Below, piece by piece: positions 12,011 to 61,877 of a DNA stretch of 64,000 bases; the first letter of the stretch is position 1; every line of letters begins with the position of its first letter. Below the pieces are notes generated by a model. That model saw nothing but the letters and a program-made list of their open reading frames with translations, did no database searches and had not been told where the DNA came from. A program made the position numbers and the translations under genes. Source of the DNA: Oscillospiraceae bacterium (GTDB taxonomy: Bacteria; Bacillota; Clostridia; UBA1212; UBA1255); assembly GCA_015069185.1 (NCBI GenBank), contig SVJB01000004.1:58853-122852 (forward strand), read 5' to 3'.

Positions 12011-12045
12011 TACACTGACATACAGTTAATATTTTATATGTAACT

Positions 12046-12088
12046 AAGCCGGCATTTCACAGATAAAACCAGTGAAATGCCGTTTTTT
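12046..12088 (+). terminator. Rho-independent terminator after the GH78 gene
   Basis: GGCATTTCAC-loop-GTGAAATGCC followed by TTTTTTT. Confidence 0.75.
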
Positions 12089-12102
12089 TAGGAGGGATTC
12101 AA

Positions 12103-13461: not shown

Positions 13462-13607
13462 ATAGTATAAAATGTTGTAAAAATATGCAGTAATTATCAA
13501 AAATAATTATTTGTAAAAAATACTCTTGTGGAAATAATAAAAGAATGTTAAAATATTTTAAAAATTGTTACAAAAGTCGAAGCAATGTCTTTGACAAAGG
13601 AGGAAAC

Positions 13608-14432: not shown

Positions 14433-14537
14433 GTCAAATTCAAAAGCAGGATGAATTACATCTTTTTCACCTTGACACAAAACGTCTTCGGCGATAGAAT
14501 ATCTTGGTTAGAATATACTATTTCAGGAGGCGTTTTT

Positions 14538-16511: not shown

Positions 16512-16549
16512 TAAGCAATGTAATTAAAATATAGTCAAAGGATTAACAA

Positions 16550-41983: not shown

Positions 41984-43221
41984 CTATATTAGGCGGCGGA
42001 GTTGTAGGCTCAGGCGTAGCAGATATTTTAATAGATAAAAGCAAGGCGCTCTCTGAGCGTTTTCACAAAGATGTTTCACTGGCATATATTCTCGATATTA
42101 GAGATATGACAGGTACGAAATATGAACCATATTATACTAACGATAAGGAAGTAGTATTCAGCGATGATGATGTAAAGCTTATCGTTGTTACAATTGGTGG
42201 TTTGGATCTTGCTGCAGATTTTTGCAGACGTGCTCTTAAATCAGGCAGACATGTTGTTACTTCTAATAAAGAGGTTGTAGCAGCTGTGGGTCGTGAGCTT
42301 ACATTGCTTGCAGATGAAAATAATGTTCGTTTCCTGTATGAGGCAAGTAGTGGCGGTGGCATTCCGATTATCCGTCCTCTTAATCTTTGTCTTGCATCAA
42401 ATGATATTTATGAGATTAATGGTATCTTGAATGGTACAACAAACTATATATTGACATGTATGTATCAGGACAGACTTTCTTTTGATGTTGCTCTTAAAAA
42501 TGCTCAGGCGGCAGGTTATGCAGAGGCAAATCCTTCTGCTGACGTAGATGGATACGATGCAGCACGTAAAATTGCAATATTGTCTTCAATTTCATATGGC
42601 AAGTTCGTTGATTATAATGATGTAAAATGTACGGGTATTAGAGATGTTATATACGATGATCATGAATTTGCTGCAAGCGCAGGCTATGCAATTAAGCTGA
42701 TTGCCGGTAGCCGTAATACAGATAAAGGTGTTACATGTACGGTTGAGCCTAAGCTTGTGCCCAAATCTAATATGCTGGCATCTGTTAATTCAGTGTATAA
42801 CGCAGTACTTGTTAAAGGTTCATACACAGGCGACACACTTATGTACGGACAGGGTGCAGGTAAACTGCCGACTGCCAGCGCTGTTGTAGGAGACATCATT
42901 GATATTCTCACAGATGCAAACAAACAGGCACTTCCCGGATTTGTTCATAATAATGCTGTTGTTATAGAAGATACAGAGGCGTGCGATAAGTACTATGTAC
43001 GTATTAATGTATCCTATGATAATGAAAGCGATGATATCAAAGATGCTGTAATTAAATGCTTTGGTGACAAGGCGTTATTCCTTGGTGCGTCTTTATCAAA
43101 TCATAGTATTGTTGCATTTATCACTGAGAAATGCACTGCAGCTGATTTTACTGCAAAGCTTGATGCTTTCTGTGACATTACAGGAGCAAAGGCGGAATAT
43201 AAATTAAAAGTAATTGATTAA
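41971..43221 (+). CDS. hom: Homoserine dehydrogenase
   Basis: An NAD-binding N-terminus (IAILGGGVVGSGV), a catalytic domain and a C-terminal ACT domain. It has a TTG start overlapping the thrC stop. Confidence 0.9.
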   Translation: MFKIAILGGGVVGSGVADILIDKSKALSERFHKDVSLAYILDIRDMTGTKYEPYYTNDKEVVFSDDDVKLIVVTIGGLDLAADFCRRALKSGRHVVTSNKEVVAAVGRELTLLADENNVRFLYEASSGGGIPIIRPLNLCLASNDIYEINGILNGTTNYILTCMYQDRLSFDVALKNAQAAGYAEANPSADVDGYDAARKIAILSSISYGKFVDYNDVKCTGIRDVIYDDHEFAASAGYAIKLIAGSRNTDKGVTCTVEPKLVPKSNMLASVNSVYNAVLVKGSYTGDTLMYGQGAGKLPTASAVVGDIIDILTDANKQALPGFVHNNAVVIEDTEACDKYYVRINVSYDNESDDIKDAVIKCFGDKALFLGASLSNHSIVAFITEKCTAADFTAKLDAFCDITGAKAEYKLKVID

Positions 43222-43235
43222 AATTGGTGGAGAGA

Positions 43236-44594
43236 ATGATGAAAGTTATTAAATTTGGTGGCAGCTCGCTGGCTGATGCAAAACAGATATTAAAAGTATG
43301 TAAGATTATTTTATCGGATGATGAGAGACGTCTTGTTGTTGTTTCTGCTCCCGGTAAGCGATATAGCGACGACAAGAAAGTAACAGATATGCTGATTTCT
43401 CTTGCTGATGCAAGCTATAACGGTCAGAATACGGATGTTATTTTAGATGAAATTGTAGAACGATACGCAAGTATCTCACGTAATCTTGGTTTGGATAATA
43501 AAATTATTAATCTTATCAGAGAAGATCTGGTAAGCCGTATTAACACAAAGACTGAGAGTTATAATAAATTTGTTGATTTACTTAAAGCGGCAGGCGAGGA
43601 TAACAACGCTAAGCTTATTGCATACTATTTGCAAAGTAAAGGCGTTAACGCAGAGTATGTTAACCCCAAAGATGCCGGAATGATCCTTACTGATGAGTTT
43701 GGTAATGCACAGGTACTTCCGTCATCATATGATAAGCTCAGTGAACTTGCAAATCGTGATACTATTATGATTTTCCCAGGGTTCTTCGGATATTCTGAGA
43801 GTGGAGAGGTTGTCACATTTTCACGTGGCGGATCAGATGTCACAGGCGGTGTACTGGCTGCAGCTATTAAGGCTTCGGTGTACGAAAACTTTACAGACGT
43901 AGATTTTGTATATGCTGCTAATCCTAATCTTATTGATAATCCTTTCCCGATTCCGCTGTTTACATACGAGGAAATGCAGGAACTTTCATACGCCGGCTTC
44001 AGTGTACTTCACGAAGAAGCTTTGGCTCCTGTTTATAAGGTAGGCATTCCCGTTAATATCCGCAATACAAACAATCCTGACGCCAAGGGCACAATGATTG
44101 TTCCCGGCAAGATGGCTCCAAAGCCGACTTTACCTGTTGTAGGTATTGCATGTGACAAAGGCTTCCTCACACTCCATGTACACAAGTACATGATGAACCG
44201 TGAGATTGGATTTGGTCGCAAGCTTCTCCAGATTTTAGAAGAAAACGGTGTTCCTTTTGAACACATGCCTTCAGGTATGGACAGTATCTCAATTATCATG
44301 CGCGAGAAACATTGTGCAAATGGTATTTTGGAGAAGATGATTGAAGAAATTAAAACAACTCTCAACGTTGACAGCGTAGTTGCGGAGAAGAATCAGGCGA
44401 TTTTAATGCTGGTTGGCAGAGGTATGACAAAGAGTGTAGGTGTAGCTACAAGAGCTACTGCTGCTTTCTCTAAGTCAGGCATCAATATTCGCATGATCAA
44501 CCAAGGTTCATCCGAGGTAAGCATCATGTTCGGTGTAGAAGAGAGCGATGCCAAGGCTGCCGTTGTAGCACTTTATAATGAGTTTTTTAATTAA
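43236..44594 (+). CDS. lysC: Aspartate kinase
   Basis: MKVIKFGGSSLAD and C-terminal tandem ACT domains. A GGTGGAGAG RBS lies upstream. Confidence 0.9.
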   Translation: MMKVIKFGGSSLADAKQILKVCKIILSDDERRLVVVSAPGKRYSDDKKVTDMLISLADASYNGQNTDVILDEIVERYASISRNLGLDNKIINLIREDLVSRINTKTESYNKFVDLLKAAGEDNNAKLIAYYLQSKGVNAEYVNPKDAGMILTDEFGNAQVLPSSYDKLSELANRDTIMIFPGFFGYSESGEVVTFSRGGSDVTGGVLAAAIKASVYENFTDVDFVYAANPNLIDNPFPIPLFTYEEMQELSYAGFSVLHEEALAPVYKVGIPVNIRNTNNPDAKGTMIVPGKMAPKPTLPVVGIACDKGFLTLHVHKYMMNREIGFGRKLLQILEENGVPFEHMPSGMDSISIIMREKHCANGILEKMIEEIKTTLNVDSVVAEKNQAILMLVGRGMTKSVGVATRATAAFSKSGINIRMINQGSSEVSIMFGVEESDAKAAVVALYNEFFN

Positions 44595-44603
44595 GGGATA
44601 TAG

Positions 44604-46040
44604 ATGATCACAAATCTTGCTGAATACAAAGAGTATATACGTAACAAGAAGATTGCTGTTATCGGTTTCGGTATCAGCAATCAAGCTTTAGTGCGTTTTC
44701 TAAATAAATGCGGCGCCCATAATATCAGTATTTTTGATAAGTCAACAGCTGACACATTTATTTCTTCCTGTGAAAAGCTTGTTTCCGCCGGAACGATTTG
44801 TGACTATTTTTATGGAGATAAATATTTATCGACTTTGACAGGTGGGAAATATGACATTATTTTCCGCTCTCCGATTGTTCGTTATGATACTCCGGAGGTA
44901 GCTGCATGTGTAGCTGAGGGTAGCGTACTTACTTCGGAGATTGAAACAGTTCTGATGTTGGCACCTTGCAAAACATACGGCGTGACAGGTAGTGATGGCA
45001 AGACCACGACTACCACTTTAATCAGTAAATTTCTGGAAGCCCATTATGCAGGTAGTGATACAAGAATCTGGCTTGGCGGTAACATAGGTAGACCACTTAT
45101 TGATGTTATTGATGAGATTAAGCCATCTGACCGTATAGTTCTAGAACTCAGCAGCTTCCAGCTTATGGATATGAAAATCAGTACTGATGTTGCTGTTATT
45201 ACTAATCTGTCACCAAATCACCTGGATGTACATAAAAGCTATGAGGAATATGCTTTTGCTAAGAAAAGCATATTTGCATATCAAAAAGAGAACGGACGTC
45301 TTGTTTTAAACGCTTTAGATGAGATGTCAGTAAAGTTGCTGGGGGACAGAAGAACAAATGTTTCATATTTTTCAGCAAGAACAAATAAGGTTCCGGGATT
45401 TTCATCTGGCTCATCGCTTTTATCCGATGATGGCAGTTATCTGGTTTATAAGGATGCATCAAAGAGACTTACTTTGTCTCGTGACACAATCAACGTACTT
45501 GGGTTATTTAATGTAGAGAATTTCCTTGCAGCGATGTGTGCCGTAAAGGATGAAGTAGATGACAGTGATCTTGAGAAGGTTGCTGCTGCTTTTCACGGGG
45601 TAGAACACCGCCTCGAGTATGTACGCACTGTTAGCGGTGTTAAATTCTATAACAGTTCTATAGATAGCAGTCCCAAAAGGACTATTTCAACGTTATCTGT
45701 TTTTACACAAAAGATAATAATGATTGCCGGCGGCAAGGATAAAGGTATTTCTTATGAAGAAATCGGACCTGTTCTTTGTGAAAAAGTTAAGGTACTTGTG
45801 CTTGTAGGACCCACTTCACAGGCTATTGAGGAGTCTGTTAATAACGCGGATCCCAATCATAAAATTACAATTATAAGACAACACAATTATCGGGATGCTG
45901 TTGATTGTGCATACAGTCATGCACAGTCCGGAGATATTGTTTTATTATCTCCTGCCAGCACAAGTTTTGACCTCTTTAGAAATTTTGAAGAACGCGGAAA
46001 GAAATATAAAGAAATTGTAAATTTACTAAACCTCAAGTAA
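44604..46040 (+). CDS. murD: UDP-N-acetylmuramoyl-L-alanine--D-glutamate ligase
   Basis: A Mur-ligase Rossmann N-domain (IAVIGFGISNQA), the P-loop GVTGSDGKTTTTTL and a C-terminal Mur-ligase domain. Confidence 0.85.
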   Translation: MITNLAEYKEYIRNKKIAVIGFGISNQALVRFLNKCGAHNISIFDKSTADTFISSCEKLVSAGTICDYFYGDKYLSTLTGGKYDIIFRSPIVRYDTPEVAACVAEGSVLTSEIETVLMLAPCKTYGVTGSDGKTTTTTLISKFLEAHYAGSDTRIWLGGNIGRPLIDVIDEIKPSDRIVLELSSFQLMDMKISTDVAVITNLSPNHLDVHKSYEEYAFAKKSIFAYQKENGRLVLNALDEMSVKLLGDRRTNVSYFSARTNKVPGFSSGSSLLSDDGSYLVYKDASKRLTLSRDTINVLGLFNVENFLAAMCAVKDEVDDSDLEKVAAAFHGVEHRLEYVRTVSGVKFYNSSIDSSPKRTISTLSVFTQKIIMIAGGKDKGISYEEIGPVLCEKVKVLVLVGPTSQAIEESVNNADPNHKITIIRQHNYRDAVDCAYSHAQSGDIVLLSPASTSFDLFRNFEERGKKYKEIVNLLNLK

Positions 46041-46069
46041 AAAACAACTGAAAAATAAAAGGGTGACAG

Positions 46070-46098
46070 TTGACACTGTTGCATAAAATATATATAAT
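46070..46098 (+). promoter_or_regulatory. Consensus sigma-A promoter TTGACA-N17-TATAAT upstream of the nine-gene ABC locus
   Basis: A perfect -35 (46070-46075) and a perfect -10 (46093-46098) separated by exactly 17 nt, ~85 nt upstream of ATG 46186. Confidence 0.7.
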
Positions 46099-46185
46099 CA
46101 TTTTGTTTAGTTTGCCCAAATCTAACCTGGGCGCATTTTGTGTTATTAATCGTTTCACAATCTACAAATACGGAAGGTTGAGCGT

Positions 46186-49100
46186 ATGAATAAGAAGAAA
46201 AAGAAAATTGTTAAGTTTTCGGTTGTGGCTGCATTGTTTGTCATACTCATAACAGTGCTGATTATCAACTCGGTTACAAAAGAACCGGGTGCTCAGCAGT
46301 TTGATTATGAGAATTATGATGAGATGGAGTTCAACCCATTCGTGACCAATGAAGACAGACTTGACAACAGCTTGCTGGATTATGGTAAGGTTCTCAGCAA
46401 ATATGCCAAGAAGGGGTATAAATATTATGCAGGAGATGATATAAGTCTTGAGTTTTCTGCTGATAAATCCGGAAACCTCACTATATTTGAATCCGGCAAT
46501 CCTGATAGTGCTGTTGTTGTTGACGGTAGCGATGCCGAGGGAGCATTACAGCTGTTTTCAAAGGTAGACATGTTCGCTGATGGATTTAAGTATACTGATC
46601 CGTCAACAGATAAGGAAGTTATAGTAACCGACATAAAAGACGGTTTATATGCTTCTACAGGCAAGACCACAATAACATTCCAGGTGACAGTTCCTGAGTC
46701 GGCTTTGTACTCACTGCGTCTGGATTATTATCTTTTAAGCGGTAAATATGCGGACATGCTTGTTTCGTTTACTATTGACGAGAAGTATCCATTTGCAGAT
46801 GCCAGCAATATGTATTTGAAACGTACATACACTTTCTATGATACAGAATATTTGGATAATAAAGATATTGTAGGAAACCAGATCCGTGGTAAGACTATGA
46901 TTCTATATGCACAAAGAAGTACCATTATGACAAATCCGGATGGTATGTATATTGATCCGTATAGATTCTATATGACAGCTGGTACGCATACTGTTACAAT
47001 GACATTTGACAGAGAACCGGGTGTTATTAATGGTATTAGTTTTGTTGCACCTCCTGTTATTGCCGATTATGAAGATTACAAGGCAGCAAATGGTTTCAGC
47101 AATGATAAAATATACAAGGGAAATGCTATTAAGACAGAGCTCGAAGTTCCGGACTTCGTTACCAGTATCGGTACACGTATGGAAACAGACGGAGACTATT
47201 TCACATCTTCTGTTGTAGATGAGAAGCCTTATAAAGTAACGCTCTACAACATATTTGGCGGAGACAACTGGAATGCAGGTGGAGACATAACACAGTGGAC
47301 GTTTGAAGTTCCTGAAACAGGTTGGTATGAGCTCGGATTTAGATTCAGATCTCAACTTACATATGTAGCATGCTATAGAGAAATCAAAATTGATGGAGAA
47401 ATTCCATTTGAGGAAATGAAAGAATATTGTTTCCCATATTCAAATGGCTGGATTGCTACTTCAATATGTGATAAGAATCAGAATCCTTATTATTTTTATC
47501 TTGAAGCTGGTAAGCATACAATCACTATTACTAATAAAATTGGTCCTATGAGACACTCTGTTTTAGCTTTAGAGGAATCTATGGATTCAATCTCAACCTT
47601 AATTAACAAGATTGTTAAGATTACAGCATCTACAAGATCCAGTGCTGGCGGATATGTAGTTGATGCTAACCGTGACTGGGATTTACAAAAATATATTCCT
47701 ACAATCCAAAAGGATATGACGACATACAAAGAACTGTTCATAAAAGCATATAAGGAAGTGTTAAAGCTCAATGGCAATAAGGTTCCTTCTTATGCATCTG
47801 CTATTCAGGTAGCATATGAACTTTTTGAAAAGTTTGAGAAAGACCTGGAAACTATTCCTACGTCCTTGAATGATATAAATAATACTATTTCAGGTTTGAG
47901 TACAACTCTTTCTTCTATAAAAGATCAGCCTATGGCAATGGATTACATGCTACTTTGCAAAGAAGGATACGATTATCCTGATACTGTAAGTTCAGGTTGG
48001 CAGTCTTTCAAAGTTGGTGTTGTTAGATTCTTCCTTTCTTTCGATAAGGACAGATATGCGAACTATGGATTGAGAGAAGCTGCAAGTGAAGATGATACAA
48101 CTATAACCGTGTATGTATCACGTTCAAGAGAGTATGTTCAGGTTCTTGAGAACATGATCGGTGAAGAATTTACTTCAAAATACGGTATAAAGGTTAATGT
48201 AAATATGGTTAATGGTGGTTCTGAAGGTCTTATCATGAAAAGATATGTAGCAGGCACTGCTCCTGATGTTGCTATTTCTTTCGGCGCAGGAACTCCGTTT
48301 GAATTTGCTATAAAAGGCGCTTTGACTCCTTTGGATACATTTGAGTCAGGTGAATATAATGGTCAGGAATATCTTGGATTCCATGAATTGAAGGAAGCAT
48401 CATATTACGATGAGGTGTTTGTGCCGTTTAATTTCAAAGATCACTATTATGCATTCCCTGAGACACAGGGATGGTCAGCAATGTTCTATAGAACAGATAT
48501 ATTTGAAGAATTAGGTTTGACTCCTCCGGACACTTGGGAAGATATTTATGATATTTTACCTGTGCTTACTAATGCAGGATATGATTTCTGCTATGATTTT
48601 GGAGCAGGTAACTATACACCTTTCTTATTCCAGCATGGTGGTGAATATTATGACTATCATGGCATGGAGTCTGCTTTGACTACACAAGCTGCCTATGATG
48701 CCTTTATTGAATACACAGACCTATATATTCAGTATAACTTCGTATATGCGTCTAACTTCTATATGCGATTTAAATCAGGCGAGATGCCGATTGGTCTTTC
48801 AGGTTTAGGCTTCTATTCTCAGCTTAACTATGCGGCTCCGGAACTTGATGGCAAATGGGCTATGCTACCGCTCCCGGGTCATGCAAGAGTTGATGAAAAT
48901 GGTGAAGTATATGTAGACCGTTCAACAAGTGCCGGTGGTGCAAGCTGCGTTATTATGAGTAGCTCAAAACATAAGGAAGAGTCATGGATATTCCTCCAGT
49001 GGTGGTTGTCTGATGATGTTCAGGCTGAATACGGAAGAGAAATTGAAGCTTTATTCGGAGTGGCCGGTAGATGGGATACTGCAAATAAGAATGCTGTAGA

Positions 49101-49383
49101 GGAGCTTCCTTATACACCTGAAGAGTTAGAAGTCATTAAGGAGCAATGGAAGTGGCTTAAAGAAACTCCTCAAACACTTGGTGACTACTATACATCAAGA
49201 TATCTTCTCACAGCGCTTAACCAGACTGTTTTACAAGGCCAGAGTGCGAGAGTTGCGTTAGAGGATGCTATTCGTGTAATTAATAAAGAAATGAAACGTA
49301 AGCAAGAAGAATATTGGGATGAAATAGCTGATGGTCCGGACCCGAGTATTGGTTCATGTCTCCACAGCCTTAAAGAGAATTAA
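46186..49383 (+). CDS. Membrane-anchored multidomain protein: N-terminal TM helix, two beta-sandwich (CBM-like) repeats, C-terminal family-1 extracellular solute-binding domain
   Basis: MNKKKKKIVKFSVVAALFVILITVLIIN is an uncleaved anchor. Repeated segments TITFQVTVPESALYSLRLDYY...GTHTVTMTF and TQWTFEVPETGWYELGFRF...GKHTITITN occur. Residues ~640-1065 resemble MalE-like sugar SBPs. Confidence 0.6.
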   Translation: MNKKKKKIVKFSVVAALFVILITVLIINSVTKEPGAQQFDYENYDEMEFNPFVTNEDRLDNSLLDYGKVLSKYAKKGYKYYAGDDISLEFSADKSGNLTIFESGNPDSAVVVDGSDAEGALQLFSKVDMFADGFKYTDPSTDKEVIVTDIKDGLYASTGKTTITFQVTVPESALYSLRLDYYLLSGKYADMLVSFTIDEKYPFADASNMYLKRTYTFYDTEYLDNKDIVGNQIRGKTMILYAQRSTIMTNPDGMYIDPYRFYMTAGTHTVTMTFDREPGVINGISFVAPPVIADYEDYKAANGFSNDKIYKGNAIKTELEVPDFVTSIGTRMETDGDYFTSSVVDEKPYKVTLYNIFGGDNWNAGGDITQWTFEVPETGWYELGFRFRSQLTYVACYREIKIDGEIPFEEMKEYCFPYSNGWIATSICDKNQNPYYFYLEAGKHTITITNKIGPMRHSVLALEESMDSISTLINKIVKITASTRSSAGGYVVDANRDWDLQKYIPTIQKDMTTYKELFIKAYKEVLKLNGNKVPSYASAIQVAYELFEKFEKDLETIPTSLNDINNTISGLSTTLSSIKDQPMAMDYMLLCKEGYDYPDTVSSGWQSFKVGVVRFFLSFDKDRYANYGLREAASEDDTTITVYVSRSREYVQVLENMIGEEFTSKYGIKVNVNMVNGGSEGLIMKRYVAGTAPDVAISFGAGTPFEFAIKGALTPLDTFESGEYNGQEYLGFHELKEASYYDEVFVPFNFKDHYYAFPETQGWSAMFYRTDIFEELGLTPPDTWEDIYDILPVLTNAGYDFCYDFGAGNYTPFLFQHGGEYYDYHGMESALTTQAAYDAFIEYTDLYIQYNFVYASNFYMRFKSGEMPIGLSGLGFYSQLNYAAPELDGKWAMLPLPGHARVDENGEVYVDRSTSAGGASCVIMSSSKHKEESWIFLQWWLSDDVQAEYGREIEALFGVAGRWDTANKNAVEELPYTPEELEVIKEQWKWLKETPQTLGDYYTSRYLLTALNQTVLQGQSARVALEDAIRVINKEMKRKQEEYWDEIADGPDPSIGSCLHSLKEN

Positions 49384-49395
49384 GAGGTGAGATGA

Positions 49396-50370
49396 GTGGC
49401 AAAAAAGAAAGATTCAGAGAAAAACGAATCAACCGTACCCGCAGTGCAGAAACCGAAGAAAAGATTCTTTAATGTTGAGAAGCGTTTTGGTTATACATTG
49501 CATGAGATGTGGCGCTATAAGATGTCTTATGGCTTGGTTGCACCATTCTTTATATGTTTTATTGTATTTTCACTTATACCACTTGTGTGGTCTACAGTGT
49601 TGAGTTTTACATATTGGAACATACTTGAAGATCCGGTGTGGATTGGATTGGATAATTACCAGTACTTATTTGTAGATGACCCGCTGTTTTTAAAAGCCTT
49701 TAGTAATACTCTTTATTATGCAGTAATCGTTGGTCCTTGTGCGTACATTGCATCATACTTCTTTGCCTGGATCATTAACCAGGTACCGGATAAGTTTAGA
49801 CCTATATACGTACTTGCTTTCTATGCGCCGTCTTTGACAAGTGGCGTTGCTATGGCTGTTGTTTGGAATGTTATGTTCTCAAATGATAGTACAGGATATT
49901 TGAATTCATTGCTTTTAAGATTGGGCTTCATATATGAACCGATTCAGTGGACTCAAGATGTTGACCTTATTATGCCTGTAACAATTATTGTTGCATTATG
50001 GTCGTCATTAGGTACCGGATTCTTGTCTTTCGTTGCTGGTTTCAGAGGTGTTGACAAAGAATTATATGATGCTGCTGCTGTTGACGGTGTTACATCAAGA
50101 TTCCAAAGACTTATATATGTTGATATACCACAGACAATGCCTCAGTTACTGTTTGCTGCAGTATTACAAATTACAGGAGCTTTTTCTGTTGGTGGTACAA
50201 TGGCAGGTCACCCATCTCCGGAGGATGCAGGTTTGACCATCATGTTGCACTTGGGAGACTATTCTGGTACGAGATTTGAAGTAGGTTATGCATCTGCTAT
50301 TGCGGTAGTATTATCGGTATTGATTTTAGGTCTTGGACGTATGGCGTTCAAAATATTACAGGATAAGTAA
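49396..50370 (+). CDS. Carbohydrate ABC transporter permease (MalF/UgpA-like)
   Basis: A six-TM permease with the EAA-loop region (GVDKELYDAAAVDG). Confidence 0.85.
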   Translation: MAKKKDSEKNESTVPAVQKPKKRFFNVEKRFGYTLHEMWRYKMSYGLVAPFFICFIVFSLIPLVWSTVLSFTYWNILEDPVWIGLDNYQYLFVDDPLFLKAFSNTLYYAVIVGPCAYIASYFFAWIINQVPDKFRPIYVLAFYAPSLTSGVAMAVVWNVMFSNDSTGYLNSLLLRLGFIYEPIQWTQDVDLIMPVTIIVALWSSLGTGFLSFVAGFRGVDKELYDAAAVDGVTSRFQRLIYVDIPQTMPQLLFAAVLQITGAFSVGGTMAGHPSPEDAGLTIMLHLGDYSGTRFEVGYASAIAVVLSVLILGLGRMAFKILQDK

Positions 50371-50381
50371 GGAGGGAAAAT

Positions 50382-51251
50382 ATGTTACAAGTTGACGTTG
50401 ATTATTTAAAAAAAGCAAAAAAACGTAGAGACTATTCTGGAATTGTAATTATAGTTTTCTTAACATTAGCCGGCATTGTTTCATTCCTTCCTTTGATATA
50501 TATGGTAAGTACGGCGTTTAAGCCACCGGAGGAAATGTTCTTATATCCGCCTACATTTTTTGTTAGGAATCCTACCTTGCAGAACTTTTCGGATCTTACC
50601 ACTGTAACTTCAAACAGCCTTGTTCCATTTTCAAGATATTTGTTTAACACTATTGTTATTACAATTGCGTACTTGTTCTGTTTGATATGGGTAGATACAA
50701 TGGCTTGTTATCCATTGTCAAAACATAAGTTCCCTGGTCATAAGGTACTGTTTAAGACAGTTACAACAGCGTTAATGTTTGTAACAGCTGCGGCAGGTAT
50801 TCCTTCATACTTGATCATTACAAATCTTCATTTGGATAATACATGGTTAGTTTACATTATTCCGGGATTAGCATCTACTACTATCTTGTTCCTCATGAAA
50901 CAGTTCATGGATCAGGTACCAAATGATATATTTGAAGCAGGTAAGATTGATGGTGCCAGCGAATGGAAATTATATACTAAAATAGCACTTCCTCTGTTGA
51001 AAAACGCACAAGCTACTGCCGTAATTCTCTCGTTTGGTGGTATTTGGGGAGATTCAGCTACCTCTAATACATATATATACGAAGAACAGATGAGAACGCT
51101 TGCTTTCTTCATGGGAACAATCGGTGGCAATATTGCCAGAACTGGTGCTACTGCGGTTTCTTCATTAATTATGACTTTACCAAGTATTATAATATTCGTA
51201 ATACAACAAAGTCGAGTTATGGATACCATGGCTCACTCAGGAATTAAATAA
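50382..51251 (+). CDS. Carbohydrate ABC transporter permease (MalG/UgpE-like)
   Basis: A six-TM permease with an EAA-like loop (IFEAGKIDGASEW). Confidence 0.85.
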   Translation: MLQVDVDYLKKAKKRRDYSGIVIIVFLTLAGIVSFLPLIYMVSTAFKPPEEMFLYPPTFFVRNPTLQNFSDLTTVTSNSLVPFSRYLFNTIVITIAYLFCLIWVDTMACYPLSKHKFPGHKVLFKTVTTALMFVTAAAGIPSYLIITNLHLDNTWLVYIIPGLASTTILFLMKQFMDQVPNDIFEAGKIDGASEWKLYTKIALPLLKNAQATAVILSFGGIWGDSATSNTYIYEEQMRTLAFFMGTIGGNIARTGATAVSSLIMTLPSIIIFVIQQSRVMDTMAHSGIK

Positions 51252-51265
51252 GGAGGTTACAGGAT

Positions 51266-53395
51266 ATGAAAATGAAAAAATATATTTGTTTACTTCTGTT
51301 ATTTGTTCTTGTATTTTCATGTACTTTCACGGTTAATGCAGAGACTCCATATTCAAATTACTATTTGAATATGAAAAACGGAAGTCTTGATATGCCGCTA
51401 CCGATACCTGCTGCCTATGAAGTATACACGATAATTGATAATCCTACTACAGAAACCGGAAAGCTTAAGAATCCACAGGACATATTTATTGATGATGATG
51501 ACAATATATATGTAGTTGATACGGGCAATAATAGAATTGTAAAATATGATTCAGACTATAATTATGTATTAGAGATTTCCGGAACAGGTACATATCCAGA
51601 AGATATGTCTGCTCTTAAAAATCCAAAATGTGTATATGTGGATTCTAAATCAGGTACAATTCTAGTTGCTGATTCAGGAAATTCAAGAATTGTTGAATAT
51701 ACTAAATATGGCAACTTACTTTATTCCTTTGAAACACCTAATAGCGAATTGTTGTCTGAGGATTTCGTATATCAGCCAATGAAGGTTACCAAAGATACAC
51801 GTGGTTATATCTATGTATGTAACAATGGTGATTATAATGGTATTATGCAGCTGAGTGCAGACGGAGAATTCAGAAGCTACTACGGTACAAATAAAGTTAA
51901 TCTTTCTTTTTGGGAATCTTTAGCTAAAGTCCTTTGGGATAGAGAAGATAGAAAAGGTTCTGTTGTTACTTTGCCGTATACATTTACTAATATATTTGCT
52001 TCTGATGATGGATATATGTATGCCACAACAACAACGGCTACACCTCCTCAAGTCAGAAAGATTAATATTGCCGGATCTGATGTATTATATGGATCATTTA
52101 ACTTTGTTGATCAGAGCGTAATGTCTAACATGAAAGGTGGTACACAGACATTCATTGATGTAACTGTTGATAGTAATAACAATATGTTTATTCTTGACCA
52201 ACGTTATTGTCGTGTTTACTCATATGATAAGTGGGGAAATAACATTTGTGTATTTGGTAGTGATGGATTAGGTCGTGGACAAATAAGAGTACCTGTAAGT
52301 ATTGAAGTTGATAGTCGCGGTCGTGTATATGTACTTGATGATGCAACATCTACCATTATTGTATATGAGCCTACAGATTTCATCAAGACAGTACATAAAG
52401 CTAATAATATGTTTATTAACGGTCAATATGAGGAATCATTACCAATTTGGGAAGAAATTCTTGAAAAAGACAGTTACTATACACTTGCTCTTATTAACAA
52501 GGGTAAGATTGAGATGAGAAAAGCTCTTACTGATAGTTCAAAAGAATATGAAAGCTATAAAACAGCAATGGATTATTTCGTAGAGGCTGAGGATGCAGCT
52601 AATGCGTCCACTGCATATGTTGAGATTCGAACATATTTTATAAGAGAAAACTTTTCCATTATTGTAATAGTTATTGTTGCTCTATTATTGTTATTGATCG
52701 GATATAAAGCTTTCAAGCGATATAGAAGAAAAAAATATGGTGTGACTCCGGAAAAGAAAAATGTATTTACAGCAATTAAGAATTTCTTTGGTAGAGTGTA
52801 TGGTGTGATTCGTCATCCTGTTGACGGATTCGAAGGCATAAGATATGAAAACAAAGGTTCTTACAGTGATATGTTTCTTGTAATGATTTTGTACACGATT
52901 GTTGCAGTTGCATCTGAATATGTAACAAGCTTTATTTTCAGAGATGGTCAGGCTTTAGATCTGATTAATCCGATGCAAATAGTTTTGACTTCGTTATTGC
53001 CTTGGTTTGTTATGTGTGTAGTAAATTACGGCGTAACGACTATCATGTATGGCGAAGGAAGATTAAGAGACGTATTCATTGCCGGCGCATATTGTCATGC
53101 TCCGTGGATGTTTGCAATGTTACCGATTCACGCTTTGACACAAATACTTACTTTAGAAGAAGCAAGTCTTTGGAATTTATGTAACACCATTCTTATGATT
53201 CTGGTTATATTCCTTGTTTACTTTGCGATTAAGGGTATTCATGGATTCCATCCTGTAAAAGCTTTTGTTGTATTGTTTATTACTGTTGTAGGCGTGGCAG
53301 CTGTCGCAATGCTGTTCATGTTAGTATATGGACTTACTTCACAGCTATTTACATTCATTTCACAAATAGTAAAGGAGTTGGGTTACCTTGTTTAA
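51266..53395 (+). CDS. Secreted NHL-repeat beta-propeller protein fused to a C-terminal polytopic Yip1-like membrane domain
   Basis: A signal peptide is followed by repeated NHL-like units (IYVVDTGNNRIVKYD, ILVADSGNSRIVEY, VYVLDDATSTIIVYE). The last ~250 aa form a ~5-TM domain resembling bacterial Yip1-family proteins. Confidence 0.55.
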   Translation: MKMKKYICLLLLFVLVFSCTFTVNAETPYSNYYLNMKNGSLDMPLPIPAAYEVYTIIDNPTTETGKLKNPQDIFIDDDDNIYVVDTGNNRIVKYDSDYNYVLEISGTGTYPEDMSALKNPKCVYVDSKSGTILVADSGNSRIVEYTKYGNLLYSFETPNSELLSEDFVYQPMKVTKDTRGYIYVCNNGDYNGIMQLSADGEFRSYYGTNKVNLSFWESLAKVLWDREDRKGSVVTLPYTFTNIFASDDGYMYATTTTATPPQVRKINIAGSDVLYGSFNFVDQSVMSNMKGGTQTFIDVTVDSNNNMFILDQRYCRVYSYDKWGNNICVFGSDGLGRGQIRVPVSIEVDSRGRVYVLDDATSTIIVYEPTDFIKTVHKANNMFINGQYEESLPIWEEILEKDSYYTLALINKGKIEMRKALTDSSKEYESYKTAMDYFVEAEDAANASTAYVEIRTYFIRENFSIIVIVIVALLLLLIGYKAFKRYRRKKYGVTPEKKNVFTAIKNFFGRVYGVIRHPVDGFEGIRYENKGSYSDMFLVMILYTIVAVASEYVTSFIFRDGQALDLINPMQIVLTSLLPWFVMCVVNYGVTTIMYGEGRLRDVFIAGAYCHAPWMFAMLPIHALTQILTLEEASLWNLCNTILMILVIFLVYFAIKGIHGFHPVKAFVVLFITVVGVAAVAMLFMLVYGLTSQLFTFISQIVKELGYLV

Positions 53396-55940: not shown

Positions 55941-55943
55941 TTT

Positions 55944-56831
55944 ATGGAAGATAAAAAAACTAAAAATAAAAAAGTTTTAACTAAAAAGCAATTGGCACAT
56001 AGAAGAGTTAAAACTACCTTCCTTTCTTTCGAAAGAAGACGAAATTTAGAAGGTATAATATTCTCTGTACCGTGGCTGGTTGGTCTTGTTTGGTTCTTAT
56101 TTATTCCGCTTTTTATGTCGGTAAAAATGAGTTTTTATCAGGTAAATGGTCAGGACTTGCTATGTAATTCAGGTTTAAGTACTTGGGTTGGCTTTGAAAA
56201 CTATATTAGTGTTATACAAGATCCTAACTCTGGCCAGGTTGTTTTAAACTCGTTTTTAAATGCACTATATCAAGTTCCTGTTATTGTAGGATTTGCGTTG
56301 TTTGTTGCGGTTTTATTAAAACAAAAGTTTCCCGGAAGAGTATACTTCAGAGTGTTTTTCTTTATTCCGGTTATATTGTCGGGAGTTATAATGTCTTACT
56401 TATTTCAAGATGATGTTGGTAGCATTAGTGTTTTCAATTCTATTGTTGCCGGTAATCAGTTCTTTGGATTCTTTGGTGAGATTATGGCAGAAATCGGACA
56501 TATAATGTGGAGAAGTAGTGTAGAAATTCTTATTTTCCTTGCTGCACTTCAAAGTGTACCTGATATTTTATATGAAGTAGTTGATCTTGATGGTGCTACT
56601 GCTTGGGAATCTTTTTGGCACATTACACTTCCATATGTATCTCCGTTTGTCATTCTGAACTGTATATATGCGTTGGTTGACTCATTTGTTGACTCTACCA
56701 ACCCTGTTATGAACTTACTTAACGGAATGACTGCATACGGCGAGCGTGCTGCCTTGAGCTGGTTATACATGTTAATGACCTTGCTTGTTATACTTGTATT
56801 TATTCTCTTCACAAGGAGGTGGCTGAAATGA
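55944..56831 (+). CDS. Carbohydrate ABC transporter permease (MalF-like)
   Basis: A six-TM permease with an EAA-type loop (DLDGATAWESFWHITLPY). Confidence 0.85.
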   Translation: MEDKKTKNKKVLTKKQLAHRRVKTTFLSFERRRNLEGIIFSVPWLVGLVWFLFIPLFMSVKMSFYQVNGQDLLCNSGLSTWVGFENYISVIQDPNSGQVVLNSFLNALYQVPVIVGFALFVAVLLKQKFPGRVYFRVFFFIPVILSGVIMSYLFQDDVGSISVFNSIVAGNQFFGFFGEIMAEIGHIMWRSSVEILIFLAALQSVPDILYEVVDLDGATAWESFWHITLPYVSPFVILNCIYALVDSFVDSTNPVMNLLNGMTAYGERAALSWLYMLMTLLVILVFILFTRRWLK

Positions 56832-57853
56832 AGAAATTAATTAACAATATTAAAGAATTCATTCTTGGTTTGATAAAGAGATATGAGAATCTTGGATATA
56901 AAGTTAAAAAGAAAATTAAATTCATTATTGGTCGAATATTTTTGTATTATGTATTAATTGAACTTGCATATTTATTTATTTTGCCGTTTATTTACATTTT
57001 TACAACCGCTTTGATGTCATCTCAGGATTATATGGATCCTACTGTGCAATATATTCCTACACACATCAACTGGGAAAACTTCTCAAAAGCATGGATGGGA
57101 TTAGATATAGTTGCTGTTAATCCGTCTTTGGATCCTGATGTAACACCTGCTTTGGGAGATTATTATTCTACCTTATTGAATACAGTTATTCTTTCCTTAG
57201 GTAGTGCAATATTACAATCAATTTCATGTGCGCTTGTTGGATACTCACTGGGACGTTTTAGATTCAAAGGCAGAATGTTAATTATGTTGTTTGTTATTAT
57301 CATATTATTGATACCGCCACAAACACTTATTACATCATCCTTCTTTATGTGGTCGCAATTAAGGATGGCAGAAGGTTTTTATGCAATATTAATTCCTACA
57401 ATTTTTGGCCACGGATTAAGAGGCGCGTTATTTATTTTGATTTATATGTACTTCTTCCAAAGAATTCCGGATGTTATGGATGATGCTGCCCGTATTGATG
57501 GAGCAGGTCCTGTAAGAGTATTTGCACAAATTATGTTCCCTCTGGTAAAATCTGCTTTTACTATAGTATTTATTTTCTCTTTTGTATGGCATTGGAATGA
57601 CAATCAAGAGACTATAACATATACATATTTGCCACAACATAATACACTGCAAGAAGCACTTAGTAAAATTTTAACCAACTATCTTTCAGAACTAGGCTTT
57701 TCAGGCGGCGCTGTAAGTGAAGCAATGAAGGCTACTGCTGAACCGGTGTTGTTTGCAGGTTGTCTGATGGTTATGTTGCCTGTATTGCTGGTTTATTTGT
57801 TAGGTCAAAAGAAGTTGGTTGCCGGCATTGAGCGTATCGGTGTCATTGAATAA
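56819..57853 (+). CDS. Carbohydrate ABC transporter permease (MalG-like)
   Basis: A six-TM permease with an EAA loop (MDDAARIDGAGPVRVFAQIMFPL). Confidence 0.85.
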   Translation: MAEMKKLINNIKEFILGLIKRYENLGYKVKKKIKFIIGRIFLYYVLIELAYLFILPFIYIFTTALMSSQDYMDPTVQYIPTHINWENFSKAWMGLDIVAVNPSLDPDVTPALGDYYSTLLNTVILSLGSAILQSISCALVGYSLGRFRFKGRMLIMLFVIIILLIPPQTLITSSFFMWSQLRMAEGFYAILIPTIFGHGLRGALFILIYMYFFQRIPDVMDDAARIDGAGPVRVFAQIMFPLVKSAFTIVFIFSFVWHWNDNQETITYTYLPQHNTLQEALSKILTNYLSELGFSGGAVSEAMKATAEPVLFAGCLMVMLPVLLVYLLGQKKLVAGIERIGVIE

Positions 57854-57874
57854 GATTGTTGGAGGTATTATATT

Positions 57875-59368
57875 ATGAATAAAAATATTATAAGATTATT
57901 CACAATGCTGTTAGTGGCTGTTATGATGTTATCGCTCATATCTTGTGCAGGATTGAATAATGACAAAGATAAGGATAAGATTGTTGGCATGTCTACTCCT
58001 GTTCCGATTCCGGAAGAATTGATTGGAACGATAGTTTTTTCGTCTTACAGAACAGAAGAGGGAGAAGTTGCTCATTTTGAATATATGCAGGCATTTGTAA
58101 TGCAGTATCCTAGTGTAGATATTGAACTTGATCTTACAAATAGCTATGACGAATATTTTGCTACTCTTGATGAGAGAATTAAGAATGGCACAATCGGAGA
58201 TGTTTTTACAATTGATGCTGCTATGATTGCAGAATATGCAGAAGCAGAATTGATTGTTGATTTAAGTGAGCATAGTGAAGGGGTTATAGATTACACAAGT
58301 AATGAATATGAGAAATTGTATCCATCTAAATTATTCTTCCCTGCTGCTTTTGAAAACTCTCTGTACGAAGGGCGATTATATATGTGCCCGGTAGAGTACA
58401 ACAATACTGTTGTTTTCCTTAATCTTGACATGCTATCTAAAACTGATATAGATCCGATTGTACCTGATGATGATTGGACATGGCAAGATATAGAAGTAAT
58501 TGCAGAAAAATTGAAAGAAGCAGGTTGTACAACTCCTATTGTAATGGATTATTTCGATTATTCTGTTTGGGGAGCTTTTGCAAGAAGCAAGGGTGCAACA
58601 TTATATAATGAGATATCATTTTCTGATAAGGAAATCGAAATGACTCTAACAAATCCTGATGTTATCTCAGGAATTGAATATCTTGCAAATAACTTTATTA
58701 GGAAGGGTTATGTTGCAGATAAGGTTCCTTCTGAATTAAGTGCTAGCGATTTAGCTCAATACGGAATTGTAATATGTAATCATTCTGATTTGGTAAGATG
58801 GGGCTCAGATCTTATTGCGAATGAAGAGGCAGACAATGGCTTTGAATGGGAGTTAGCTCATTTTCCCGGATTTTATAATGAAGAGACAGATACAGTTAAT
58901 CACGCAATCGGCGTTCAGACAATAGGACTGGCAGTATTCAATAGAGAACAATATAATATCGATAATGGTATTTATGACAGTATTAATGACGAGGAGCTTC
59001 TTGAAGAAGAAAAAAATAATGTTGAAAATTCAATAATTAATTCTATAAAATTTGCATTATATGCAATGGTTAAGGAAGCTGCTGTTGCTATTACTGGACC
59101 GGATGGATACAGAGTTCCTGCTCTTATGTCAGCAAATGCCATGAAATATTGGCGAAAATATCCTGTTGACGGAAAAAATACGTCTGTATTTTCGTTATAT
59201 AACGAGAATGATTTTGCCGGTGAGCTTTCATCATTTTTAACTCTTGCTCCGACTAACGAGATTGAAAAGGCGATGGGATCAGCTATTCAAAAATACTCAA
59301 ATGATTCTGATTCAAAGACATTTGATAAATATATGCAGGAAATTCAGGATGCAGTAAATACACATTAA
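57875..59368 (+). CDS. Extracellular solute-binding lipoprotein (family-1 carbohydrate SBP)
   Basis: A lipobox (LISCAG), a Lys/Asp-rich linker and SBP-like content, at 497 aa. Confidence 0.75.
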   Translation: MNKNIIRLFTMLLVAVMMLSLISCAGLNNDKDKDKIVGMSTPVPIPEELIGTIVFSSYRTEEGEVAHFEYMQAFVMQYPSVDIELDLTNSYDEYFATLDERIKNGTIGDVFTIDAAMIAEYAEAELIVDLSEHSEGVIDYTSNEYEKLYPSKLFFPAAFENSLYEGRLYMCPVEYNNTVVFLNLDMLSKTDIDPIVPDDDWTWQDIEVIAEKLKEAGCTTPIVMDYFDYSVWGAFARSKGATLYNEISFSDKEIEMTLTNPDVISGIEYLANNFIRKGYVADKVPSELSASDLAQYGIVICNHSDLVRWGSDLIANEEADNGFEWELAHFPGFYNEETDTVNHAIGVQTIGLAVFNREQYNIDNGIYDSINDEELLEEEKNNVENSIINSIKFALYAMVKEAAVAITGPDGYRVPALMSANAMKYWRKYPVDGKNTSVFSLYNENDFAGELSSFLTLAPTNEIEKAMGSAIQKYSNDSDSKTFDKYMQEIQDAVNTH

Positions 59369-59435
59369 AATGTAATAATTTATTCATTATCTAATGTATT
59401 TACTTTTATTAAATCTATGTTATTATTAACATAAA

Positions 59436-59443
59436 TGTATAAT
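59436..59443 (+). promoter_or_regulatory. Possible internal extended -10 promoter (TGTATAAT) ahead of the last SBP gene
   Basis: TGnTATAAT lies in the 98-nt gap before ATG 59467. No convincing -35 is present. Confidence 0.3.
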
Positions 59444-59466
59444 ACTACTTTTAGGAGGTTTATTAA

Positions 59467-60813
59467 ATGAAAAAGATTGTTAAGAGAGCAATTGTTTTAT
59501 TAATTGTAACTCTCACTCTCTTAGGTATGGTTGCTTGTGGTCAGCCCCCGATTGTTGACGTAGACCACGTCAATGCCGATTATGAGCCGGATGTATCTGG
59601 TAACATTACTTGGACATTTGACACATCTAATGCCTTTGCAAAGAGAGCAGCGACTTCTTTTATTAAAGCATTTGAGAGTGCATACCCCAATGCATCAGTA
59701 GAACTTGACTCTTCAGGTACAAGTGCTGCTCGTGTTACAGGTGGTACAATTGGTGATGTATTTTGGTTCCCTGAGACTCAGATTTATGAATATGCGATAA
59801 CAAATAATGGACTTATGCCACTTGAAGGTTACGTAGCTGCATTAGGTTTAGATTTATCTGATGTTTACATGGGTATTTATGAACTTGGTAAAGTTGACGG
59901 CCACCTTTTCTATGTGTCAAGAGACTATAACTCAATTTGTTTCTCATATAACAAGTCAAAATTAAAAGAGTTAAACCTTGATACACAGGTTTCTAATGAT
60001 TGGTCTTGGGATACATTGCGCTCAATTGCTAAAACAGTAACAGAAGCTACTGCTAACGACAGTGAAAAGTATTATGGTGCTAATATTGACCTTACATATT
60101 CACCTGTTTATGTAACATTCTTTGAATCATCAGCTGGTGGTACATGGTGTGATACAGAAGAGAAGAAGATTACTTTTAATGATGAAAATGGTTCTACTCT
60201 TAGAGCTTTACAGGAATGTATTGATGATGCTCTTGCTGGATATATTAATCCAGGTGCAGGTTCACTTACAGAAGGTACACCTGTATTCAAGTATTTGATT
60301 CATCCTAACGTTCTTACTCAAGGTAAGGATTATGATTCAGCAGGTCTTGAATGGGATATGGTTGCATTCCCTGGATTTGGTGAGAATGGACAGAATAGAG
60401 GCTTTGGTTGCGGATCTTCAGGATTTGGTGTTTATAATAGAACACAGAACCCAGACACTGCAGCAGCATTTGCACTTTACTTCTATACAGAAGAAGGACA
60501 GCTCGCATATAATGGTCAGCCTGGTGCTTCAGTACCGGTAGTAGGTGCTTTAAAGGATTCTGATTCTTGGAGATATCCTGATGAAACAGAGTGGAAGGAT
60601 AAGAACTGGGATGCATTTGTATACGAAGCACAGACAGCAAGTATTGTAGGTCAGGTAGTATGCCGTATGCCTTATGAAGTTGCTGAGGTTATCAATAATG
60701 AAATGACTCTGATTATTAACAAAGTTATGAAGGGTACTACATCAATTGATGACGCATTCAAAGCACTCGAAACAAAGTGTAATGAATTGTGGTCTACTCT
60801 CGTTGATTATTAA
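59467..60813 (+). CDS. Extracellular solute-binding lipoprotein (second carbohydrate SBP)
   Basis: A lipobox (GMVACGQ) and a family-1 SBP-like profile, at 448 aa. Confidence 0.75.
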   Translation: MKKIVKRAIVLLIVTLTLLGMVACGQPPIVDVDHVNADYEPDVSGNITWTFDTSNAFAKRAATSFIKAFESAYPNASVELDSSGTSAARVTGGTIGDVFWFPETQIYEYAITNNGLMPLEGYVAALGLDLSDVYMGIYELGKVDGHLFYVSRDYNSICFSYNKSKLKELNLDTQVSNDWSWDTLRSIAKTVTEATANDSEKYYGANIDLTYSPVYVTFFESSAGGTWCDTEEKKITFNDENGSTLRALQECIDDALAGYINPGAGSLTEGTPVFKYLIHPNVLTQGKDYDSAGLEWDMVAFPGFGENGQNRGFGCGSSGFGVYNRTQNPDTAAAFALYFYTEEGQLAYNGQPGASVPVVGALKDSDSWRYPDETEWKDKNWDAFVYEAQTASIVGQVVCRMPYEVAEVINNEMTLIINKVMKGTTSIDDAFKALETKCNELWSTLVDY

Positions 60814-60835
60814 TAATTACTAAAATAGTGAAGAT

Positions 60836-60868
60836 AACTCCGTAGATAATACGGAGTTATTTTTTTAT
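60836..60868. terminator. Bidirectional Rho-independent terminator between the convergent SBP and ylbJ-like genes
   Basis: AACTCCGTA-loop-TACGGAGTT is followed by TTTTTTT on the + strand and flanked by A-rich sequence for the minus strand. Confidence 0.75.
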
Positions 60869-61816: not shown

Positions 61817-61877
61817 AGACTTTTTATGTTTTATATAGTAAAATTAAAAGATGATATTTATAAAGGAGATGAGCGCT

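Follow-up and report, generated by a model that had tools for sequence, protein, structure and literature searches.

A solute-binding protein fused to CBM35-like repeats heads a widespread and conserved transporter cassette

The capture of glycans at the cell surface is well understood in Bacteroidota, where Sus systems combine the surface glycan-binding proteins SusD, SusE and SusF with the enzyme SusG and the transporter SusC. In single-membrane bacteria it is known as a set of separate parts, namely enzymes that bear carbohydrate-binding modules (CBMs) and lipoprotein solute-binding proteins (SBPs). Here we analyse a locus in which the SBP of a transporter itself incorporates a carbohydrate-binding-type module, and in which that SBP is locked in a cassette with a DUF5696 protein, an NHL/Yip1 protein and two importers. 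The locus lies in a 64,000-nucleotide stretch of DNA, hereafter the window, from an Oscillospiraceae bacterium (GenBank assembly GCA_015069185.1, contig SVJB01000004.1, positions 58,853 to 122,852 of the forward strand). Its leading gene encodes a protein of 1065 residues, which we call the big SBP; the product is identical to GenBank MBE7066441.1 from a Ruminococcaceae/Oscillospiraceae metagenome-assembled genome (MAG), where it is labelled merely ‘extracellular solute-binding protein’. We think it probable, with real reservations, that the big SBP serves a type I carbohydrate ATP-binding cassette (ABC) importer as its dedicated, membrane-tethered substrate-binding subunit, that it carries a rigid CBM35-like module, and that it heads a monoderm cassette for the capture, cutting and import of a glycan. 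Both the fusion of CBM35-like repeats to an SBP and the cassette around it are apparently undescribed; a full-text literature search, whose incomplete coverage leaves room for an earlier description, uncovered no account of the cassette, of DUF5696 or of any CBM-SBP fusion. A 2026 review devoted to bacterial glycoside transporters refers to CBMs only briefly and names no fusion with an SBP.

The closest described relatives of the C-terminal ~410 residues are the MalE-type SBPs of SBP_bac_1 and cluster B/D-I, such as Lin1841 (PDB 5ysb), CbpB (7x0i), a cycloisomaltooligosaccharide-binding protein (9xf5) and the MalE of X. citri (3uor). The likeness is one of fold and family, and extends to the genomic setting, with a UgpAE/MalFG-type permease pair encoded 3' of the big SBP gene. 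MalE-type SBPs, however, are lipoproteins or periplasmic proteins of 40-50 kDa without accessory domains, whereas the big SBP has ~600 extra N-terminal residues and a transmembrane (TM)-type N-terminus. For these extra residues the nearest described structures are CBM35 and CBM6 modules, including the CBM35-1 of glycoside hydrolase family 66 (GH66) CITase (5x7g, 3wnk), Xyn30D-CBM35 (4qaw) and CtCBM35 (2w47), with which they share the beta-jelly-roll, profile homology and a tryptophan at the canonical site. Here the modules sit on a transporter SBP and not on an enzyme, score below the Pfam threshold and include a degenerate copy; moreover, the end of the second repeat runs straight into a helix. 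The resemblance to Sus systems is one of functional analogy alone, in that the genes for binding modules, for an enzyme at the surface and for a transporter lie together and their products presumably act in sequence. There is no homology, and the cassette differs in being monoderm, in using ABC rather than TonB-dependent transport and in fusing the binding module to the SBP. TM-anchored SBPs occur in archaea and Gram-positive bacteria, and substrate-binding domains are fused to the permease in GlnPQ and OpuA. There too a polypeptide tether, and not a lipid, keeps the binding domain at the membrane, but either the permease or a plain anchor provides the attachment, and no carbohydrate-binding modules are added.

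By family membership and predicted fold, the C-terminal domain of the big SBP is a MalE-like sugar SBP with two lobes. Pfam SBP_bac_1 (PF01547) matches residues 654-947 with 93.9 bits against a cut-off of 26, SBP_bac_8 (PF13416) matches residues 660-950 with 79.4 bits, and a phmmer search of the PDB returns Lin1841 (E 4.8e-12) together with other sugar SBPs. Foldseek places the modelled domain closest to 5ci5, 9xf5, 3uor, CbpB and the E. coli maltose-binding protein, with target-normalised TM-scores of 0.65-0.82 and E values down to 8e-20. Such a domain would be expected to pick up a solute and hand it over to the permease. We built an AlphaFold2 (AF2) model of the big SBP with a 73-member family alignment. 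Its predicted local distance difference test score (pLDDT) is 87.4 and its predicted TM-score (pTM) 0.83 over the full length, rising to 88.3 and 0.89 when residues 31-636 are modelled alone. The model consists of a helix (2-30), a poorly defined stretch to ~150, two all-beta domains (~154-290 and 313-455), a helical part (~456-636) and an alpha/beta domain (638-1047). Mean pairwise identity within the family is 46% for the SBP domain, which is the best-conserved part of the protein, 45% for the second beta domain, which is about equally conserved, 37% for the first and 34% for the helical bundle.

These results bear out much of the initial annotation, which was made from the sequence alone and described a MalE-like SBP domain behind two ~150-residue beta-sandwich repeats and an N-terminal TM helix. 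The MalE-like domain is indeed C-terminal and the length of 1065 residues correct, but the SBP fold takes up ~39% of the protein (residues ~638-1047) rather than a strict third. Both repeats are present in what was described as the N-terminal two-thirds, but the helical bundle (residues ~456-636) and a clade-specific region (residues ~31-153) went unmentioned. The contrast drawn with normal lipoprotein SBPs holds within the same operon, where two ordinary SBPs carry lipoboxes (LISC|AG and MVAC|GQ). Anchoring by an uncleaved TM helix survives in part. The big SBP begins with MNKKKKKIVK followed by ~21 uncharged residues (11-31), and its first 60 residues are free of cysteine, which excludes a lipobox; an AxA cleavage site is not evident either. 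The big SBP is not a lipoprotein SBP, since it fails the lipobox test, and its hydrophobic N-terminal helix is probably a signal anchor, which is likely, though not proven, to stay uncleaved. Inspected by eye, the N-termini across the family are a mixture of anchor-like and AxA-type sequences with a few that resemble lipoboxes. The clade-specific region that follows has a mean pairwise identity of 24%, its model is of low confidence (pLDDT 46-77 over residues 100-160), and most relatives match the query only from residue ~130-165 onwards. The bundle comprises helices at 453-480, 507-528, 537-552, 558-579 and 604-620, and searches of PDB and Pfam detected no known family in it. Matches of residues 450-640 to designed coiled coils and methyl-accepting chemotaxis proteins were read as compositional noise.

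The two beta-sandwiches are, by profile comparison, the products of an ancient duplication, and this duplication is seen at profile level only. A self-BLASTP of the big SBP revealed no internal repeat, but the 73-member alignment shows the pattern W.V.VPE.G.Y...R...I(D/N)GE.PF...F...W...PY.FYL..G.(H/N)TI.L twice, and hhalign joins the two sub-alignments over 96 columns with a probability of 99.8% (E 3.2e-28). The detectable repeat cores cover residues ~155-279 and ~361-455, and together with their leading strands the domains span ~137 and 143 residues. Searched as a single sequence, the big SBP has no Pfam match in its first 650 residues and no NCBIfam match anywhere. The family profile of the two-repeat region (A5), compared as a hidden Markov model, matches the CBM35-1 of Paenibacillus sp. 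598K CITase (5x7g) through repeat 2 with an E value of 1.2e-10, matches 3wnp/3wnk at ~1e-4, and shows weak matches to other CBM35 and CBM6 structures (2w47, 2vzp, 2bgo), with repeat 1 weakly matching 2vzp and 6f2p. Among 20 family members scanned with Pfam, CBM_35 was found in 14 and Golvesin_C in 18 (E <= 0.01), nearly all below the gathering threshold, and the homologue P0041 passes the CBM_35 cut-off (29.6 bits against 28).

Structure comparison points the same way. When the N-terminal model is compared with the PDB by Foldseek, the matches are nearly all CBM-bearing carbohydrate-active enzymes (CAZymes), including the CITase CBM35 (3wnn_B at a root-mean-square deviation (rmsd) of 4.0 Å over 149 columns; 5x7g at 18% identity), Xyn30D-CBM35, CBM6E, BT0996-C, GH26-CBM35, CtGH5-CBM6 and GH101 enzymes, as well as Cry protoxins, which consist of beta-rolls and helical bundles. 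Long alignments to the multi-domain targets (Cry protoxins, GH101) were rejected as global matches at an rmsd of 18-27 Å, and the fold assignment of the repeats rests solely on local, CBM-sized alignments. With the repeats returning CBM35/CBM6 folds and the C-terminus an SBP fold, both fold assignments of the initial annotation stand. By fold and profile homology, the repeats are remote CBM35/CBM6 homologues with a beta-jelly-roll. We call them CBM35-like, and not members of CBM35, because the window protein misses the Pfam threshold, and any Ca2+ or ligand sites in them are predicted at most.

That the repeats bind carbohydrate is plausible from the residues that the family retains. In the CBM35-1 of PsCITase, Trp507 is the stacking platform of the canonical variable-loop CBM35 site (PMC5408701). 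W422 of repeat 2 aligns with this residue, in a column that is tryptophan in 70 of the 73 members; chain indices and residue numbers in 5x7g differ by 19, as both Trp507 and Trp515 confirm. Repeat 2 also keeps E320, N355, W362, W371, Y381, R398, D403 and G404, all of them, like W422, in columns that are invariant or nearly so, and the invariant E320 sits where the ‘YEAE’ strand of 5x7g aligns. Repeat 1 of the window protein has instead undergone the replacements G199E, Q237T, E239I and W243Q at positions occupied by G, Q, E and W in more than 85% of the family, and has thereby lost a Q-x-E-x3-W motif. These replacements are confined to the window protein and its relative at 79% identity (in locus L006), and relatives at 50-58% identity keep the motif. 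This looks like a lineage-specific decay of one of two putative binding sites, with the consequence that in this lineage only repeat 2 is probably, by prediction, competent.

The initial annotation implied that this architecture is rare, and in this respect it was mistaken, as the fusion is widespread and belongs to a conserved cassette of seven genes. An exhaustive search with the N-terminal module found 1,413 representative clusters at 50% identity (E <= 1e-3), 1,084 of which remain at E <= 1e-10, and a word-indexed search gave 806 at 90% identity. Among the clusters listed, nearly all proteins are 940-1050 residues long, a length which indicates that the module is nearly always fused to an SBP, and the conserved part corresponds to residues ~130-625 of the window protein. 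A scan of one genome per species with a query alignment of 13 sequences yielded relatives in the genomes of at least 539 species. The carriers include Clostridia (Lachnospiraceae, Oscillospiraceae and Caldicoprobacter, the first two with gut and rumen members), Paenibacillus, Cohnella, Bacillus, Limnochordia, Chloroflexota (Caldilineaceae), Acholeplasma laidlawii and one Falkowbacteria MAG. This last contig (L080), the single one assigned to the candidate phyla radiation, may be a binning error. The cassette itself is present in the wall-less mollicute A. laidlawii (L063, in a genome of 1.46 Mb) and in Chloroflexota (L015, L016, L026 and L069). A few relatives are unusually long (P0216, 1188 residues; P0268, 1129; P0131, 1103), and longer matches or an extra upstream open reading frame (ORF) matching the N-terminal module occur in Paenibacillus flagellatus and a Pseudalkalibacillus sp. 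(L021 at 9656-14213 and L061 at 10001-14119). Additional CBM-like copies could account for these cases, as could frameshifts.

We examined the order of the cassette in 85 fetched related loci, as far as each contig extends. In essentially all of them, and across Bacillota, Chloroflexota and Acholeplasma, the big SBP is followed by two permeases (pair A), an NHL propeller, to which a Yip1 domain is fused in some loci and not in others, the DUF5696 protein and two further permeases (pair B). Two Caldilineaceae genomes have the same set in a rotated order, with the big SBP still directly before pair A, and the two adjoin in all 85 loci. In the window the cassette genes are 3-14 nt apart or overlap, and pair A starts 12 nt 3' of the big SBP gene. 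Pair B follows DUF5696 wherever related contigs reach that far. Its first member in the window (55944-56831, + strand) has no Pfam BPD_transp_1 match at E <= 0.01 and weak NCBIfam permease matches, as do its counterparts in L004 and L005; judged by its sequence, it is of a divergent permease subfamily. Most related loci also encode an ordinary SBP, either behind pair B or immediately ahead of the big SBP. In most there is one such adjacent gene, and none was detected in 12 assessable loci. A MalK-like ATPase is encoded nearby in 14 of the 85, mostly directly upstream of the big SBP. The features of the window are collected in Table 1.

Table 1. Features of the cassette operon and of the big SBP in the window (coordinates count from the first letter of the window).
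Feature	Position	Strand	Basis
Promoter-like site	46070..46098	+	TTGACA-17 nt-TATAAT, 88 nt 5' of the big SBP ATG
Big SBP ORF	46186..49383	+	ATG to stop, 1065 aa; two CBM35-like repeats, helical bundle and SBP fused
N-terminal hydrophobic helix, aa ~8-30	46207..46275	+	Kyte-Doolittle scan, sequence, AF2 helix 2-30
Clade-specific N-terminal region, aa 31-153	46276..46644	+	Partly beta, low confidence
Repeat 1, CBM35/CBM6-like beta-sandwich, aa 154-290	46645..47055	+	hhalign, AF2 strands, weak CBM35 matches
Repeat 2, CBM35-like beta-sandwich, aa 313-455	47122..47550	+	Family profile to 5x7g, Foldseek
Helical bundle and short beta element, aa 456-636	47551..48093	+	AF2; joins repeat 2 to the SBP domain
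MalE-like SBP_bac_1 domain, aa 638-1047	48097..49326	+	Pfam, PDB phmmer, Foldseek
Permease pair A (324 + 289 aa), UgpA/UgpE- or MalF/MalG-type	49396..51251	+	Pfam BPD_transp_1, NCBIfam partial matches
NHL/Yip1 protein, 709 aa	51266..53395	+	Pfam NHL and Yip1, PDB NHL propellers, TM scan
DUF5696 protein, 850 aa	53388..55940	+	Pfam DUF5696 E 2e-117; signal anchor aa ~36-67 by TM scan
Permease pair B (295 + 344 aa)	55944..57853	+	NCBIfam and Pfam permease matches
Two ordinary lipoprotein SBPs (497 + 448 aa)	57875..60813	+	Pfam SBP_bac_1/8, lipoboxes

The two proteins encoded between the permease pairs give the cassette its distinctive character. The DUF5696 protein of the window (MBE7066445.1) is annotated ‘hypothetical protein’, and a search of the PDB with the single sequence gave no match. 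A profile of 27 DUF5696 members (A4), however, matches GH129, with E values of ~4e-13 for the 3,6-anhydro-D-galactosidase structures 5opq (from Zobellia) and 8rzg and of 6e-11 for the alpha-N-acetylgalactosaminidase 5wzn (NagBb), in an alignment that spans the beta domain at the N-terminus and the first part of the barrel. GH129 enzymes are the closest relatives of DUF5696, which differs from them in its N-terminal signal anchor, in its constant position between two permease pairs, and in that the aligned stretch does not include the catalytic residues. We infer that DUF5696 is a distant GH129-like putative ecto-glycosidase, and by the same homology it may represent an unassigned ecto-glycosidase family. 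The NHL/Yip1 protein has a signal peptide that looks cleavable, a six-bladed NHL beta-propeller, a TM segment and a multi-TM Yip1 domain. In the window the NHL and Yip1 parts form one protein, whereas in many other genomes they are encoded by two adjacent genes (L003 at 14827-17006, L014 and L024, for example), and this natural alternation between split and fusion argues that both parts work together. According to Yamada and colleagues in 2012, YknW of the B. subtilis YknWXYZ system is reportedly a membrane protein of the Yip1 family associated with an ABC transporter, which would be a precedent for a Yip1-domain protein as an accessory subunit of such a transporter. YknXYZ is a MacB-type exporter, however, whereas the Yip1 domain of the cassette is joined to, or encoded beside, an extracellular NHL propeller and stands with importer-type permeases.

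Taken together, these parts suggest how the cassette might operate. The CBM35-like module would hold a polymeric or otherwise large glycan at the outer face of the membrane, in this lineage chiefly through repeat 2 and the surroundings of W422, W362 and N355. The signal-anchored, GH129-like DUF5696 enzyme would then cut the glycan, possibly organised by the NHL/Yip1 protein. One product would pass to the SBP domain in cis and from there to permease pair A, and a second would reach pair B by way of the ordinary lipoprotein SBP or SBPs, with both translocons powered by a MalK/MsmX-type ATPase encoded elsewhere. The analysis establishes the domain identities, the duplication of the repeats, the relationships to CBM35 and GH129, the topology signals and the fixed gene order, whereas sugar binding by the repeats, catalysis by DUF5696, transfer in cis, a physical complex and the nature of the substrate are predicted elements of this scheme. 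The initial annotation pictured an antenna that feeds an ABC importer. The importer half of this picture agrees with the two permease genes that directly follow the big SBP gene, but pTM values of 0.83 and 0.89 suggest that the repeats form a packed body with the bundle rather than a floppy antenna. A stronger version, in which the CBM35-SBP fusion, the GH129-like enzyme and the NHL/Yip1 protein are coupled to the two ABC translocons in a stable surface supercomplex that performs ‘selfish’ uptake without release into the medium, seems to us doubtful, and the same tentative standing applies jointly to a role of the Yip1 domain as the membrane organiser of such a complex.

Several observations weigh against the capture-cut-import reading. 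The big SBP of the window reaches 18.5 bits against Pfam CBM_35, below the gathering cut-off of 28, and its repeat 1 lacks the conserved Q/E/W residues. In HMMER, the alignments between DUF5696 and GH129 either end short of the barrel region with the catalytic Asp/Glu or pass over it. The window operon contains no ATPase gene, and some family members have cleavable signal peptides in place of anchors. Finally, the cassette and many SBP-domain residues remain constant across very different CAZyme neighbourhoods, and this constancy agrees with a constant ligand, or with a structural role of the module, just as readily as with the capture of a substrate. In one alternative, the repeats and the bundle would no longer bind sugars and would serve as a rigid spacer or docking platform, which would either position the SBP domain within or through the cell wall or bind the DUF5696 or NHL/Yip1 protein to assemble the surface complex. 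We regard this as a serious but rather unlikely alternative. It would be in keeping with the high pTM of a five-part protein, which suggests fixed packing between domains, with the missed Pfam CBM thresholds, with the retention of a gene in which repeat 1 has degenerated, and with a module that is always fused and is inherited along with one and the same set of partner genes, whichever CAZymes flank the cassette. CBM35-like domains that reportedly assist catalysis without binding are also on record, Ape1 being one example. The case for sugar binding lies instead in W422, which aligns with the canonical tryptophan and which, like N355 and W362, is near-invariant at ~25-50% identity, and in the constraint on repeat 2, which is as strong as that on the SBP domain; neither is decisive, as both fit a protein interface too.

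A second alternative removes the big SBP from transport altogether and makes it an accessory of the GH129-like enzyme that binds or senses glycans at the surface and uses its SBP fold as one more binding domain, with both permease pairs served by ordinary lipoprotein SBPs. Other systems have recruited SBP folds as sensor domains, and the two ordinary SBPs in the window operon are numerically enough for two pairs. Most loci have one ordinary SBP, however, or none in the 12 cases mentioned above, and the big SBP would then be the one partner available to pair A. The big SBP also always directly precedes pair A, the rotated Caldilineaceae cassettes included, and its SBP domain is the part of the protein that has been conserved best, and we accordingly consider a purely accessory role improbable. 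The window derives from a MAG, and a long ORF of this kind could in principle be a mis-assembly or frameshift fusion of a CBM gene and an SBP gene. We give this practically no credence and reject it because the architecture is conserved: it recurs at full length in more than 1,000 sequence clusters and in isolates of Paenibacillus, Cohnella, Caldicoprobacter and Acholeplasma, the identical sequence is found on several independent contigs, and the AF2 model is confident across the domain junctions. The reading of the big SBP as an importer subunit with a CBM35-like module, though not secure, is the one that we favour.

If the proposed mechanism is true, the cassette represents a widespread and so far unannotated machine for glycan acquisition. 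Functions would then be assigned to DUF5696 and to bacterial Yip1 proteins, and genome annotators would gain in the fusion a marker by which to recognise one class of polysaccharide utilisation loci in Gram-positive bacteria. If the supercomplex were also real, it would be the monoderm functional counterpart of the Sus machinery of Bacteroidota.

The genes around the cassette differ among genomes. Flanking CAZymes comprise GH78, GH2, GH5 and GH36 in L004 and L005, with GH78 directly upstream of the cassette in both, GH115 and a GDSL esterase at a Roseburia locus, and GH88, a heparinase-II/III-like protein and a pectate-lyase-like protein at a Paenibacillus locus. The window itself carries two GH78 alpha-L-rhamnosidase genes and a gene for a fusion of class II aldolase and short-chain dehydrogenase (9524-12010, 38132-40417 and 14451-16511, + strand), which from its domains looks like a rhamnulose-1-phosphate aldolase/lactaldehyde dehydrogenase; none of these is adjacent to the cassette operon. 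The GH78 and rhamnose genes are a weak hint at a rhamnose-containing substrate, and we rejected the assignment of a substrate from neighbouring genes, since the flanking CAZymes differ among genomes even though GH78 recurs. Directly upstream of the operon (40502-46040, + strand) lie genes for threonine synthase, homoserine dehydrogenase, aspartate kinase and a Mur-ligase-like protein, which place the window cassette outside any CAZyme island. The promoter-like site upstream of the big SBP gene is probably the operon promoter. It is the sole match to all 12 of the 12 consensus positions in 45800-61900, and the evidence is suggestive only, as the overall number of promoter-like sites in this interval equals that expected by chance. 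Elsewhere in the window, a DUF1846 protein (E 2e-172) is encoded among housekeeping genes (31864-33348, + strand).

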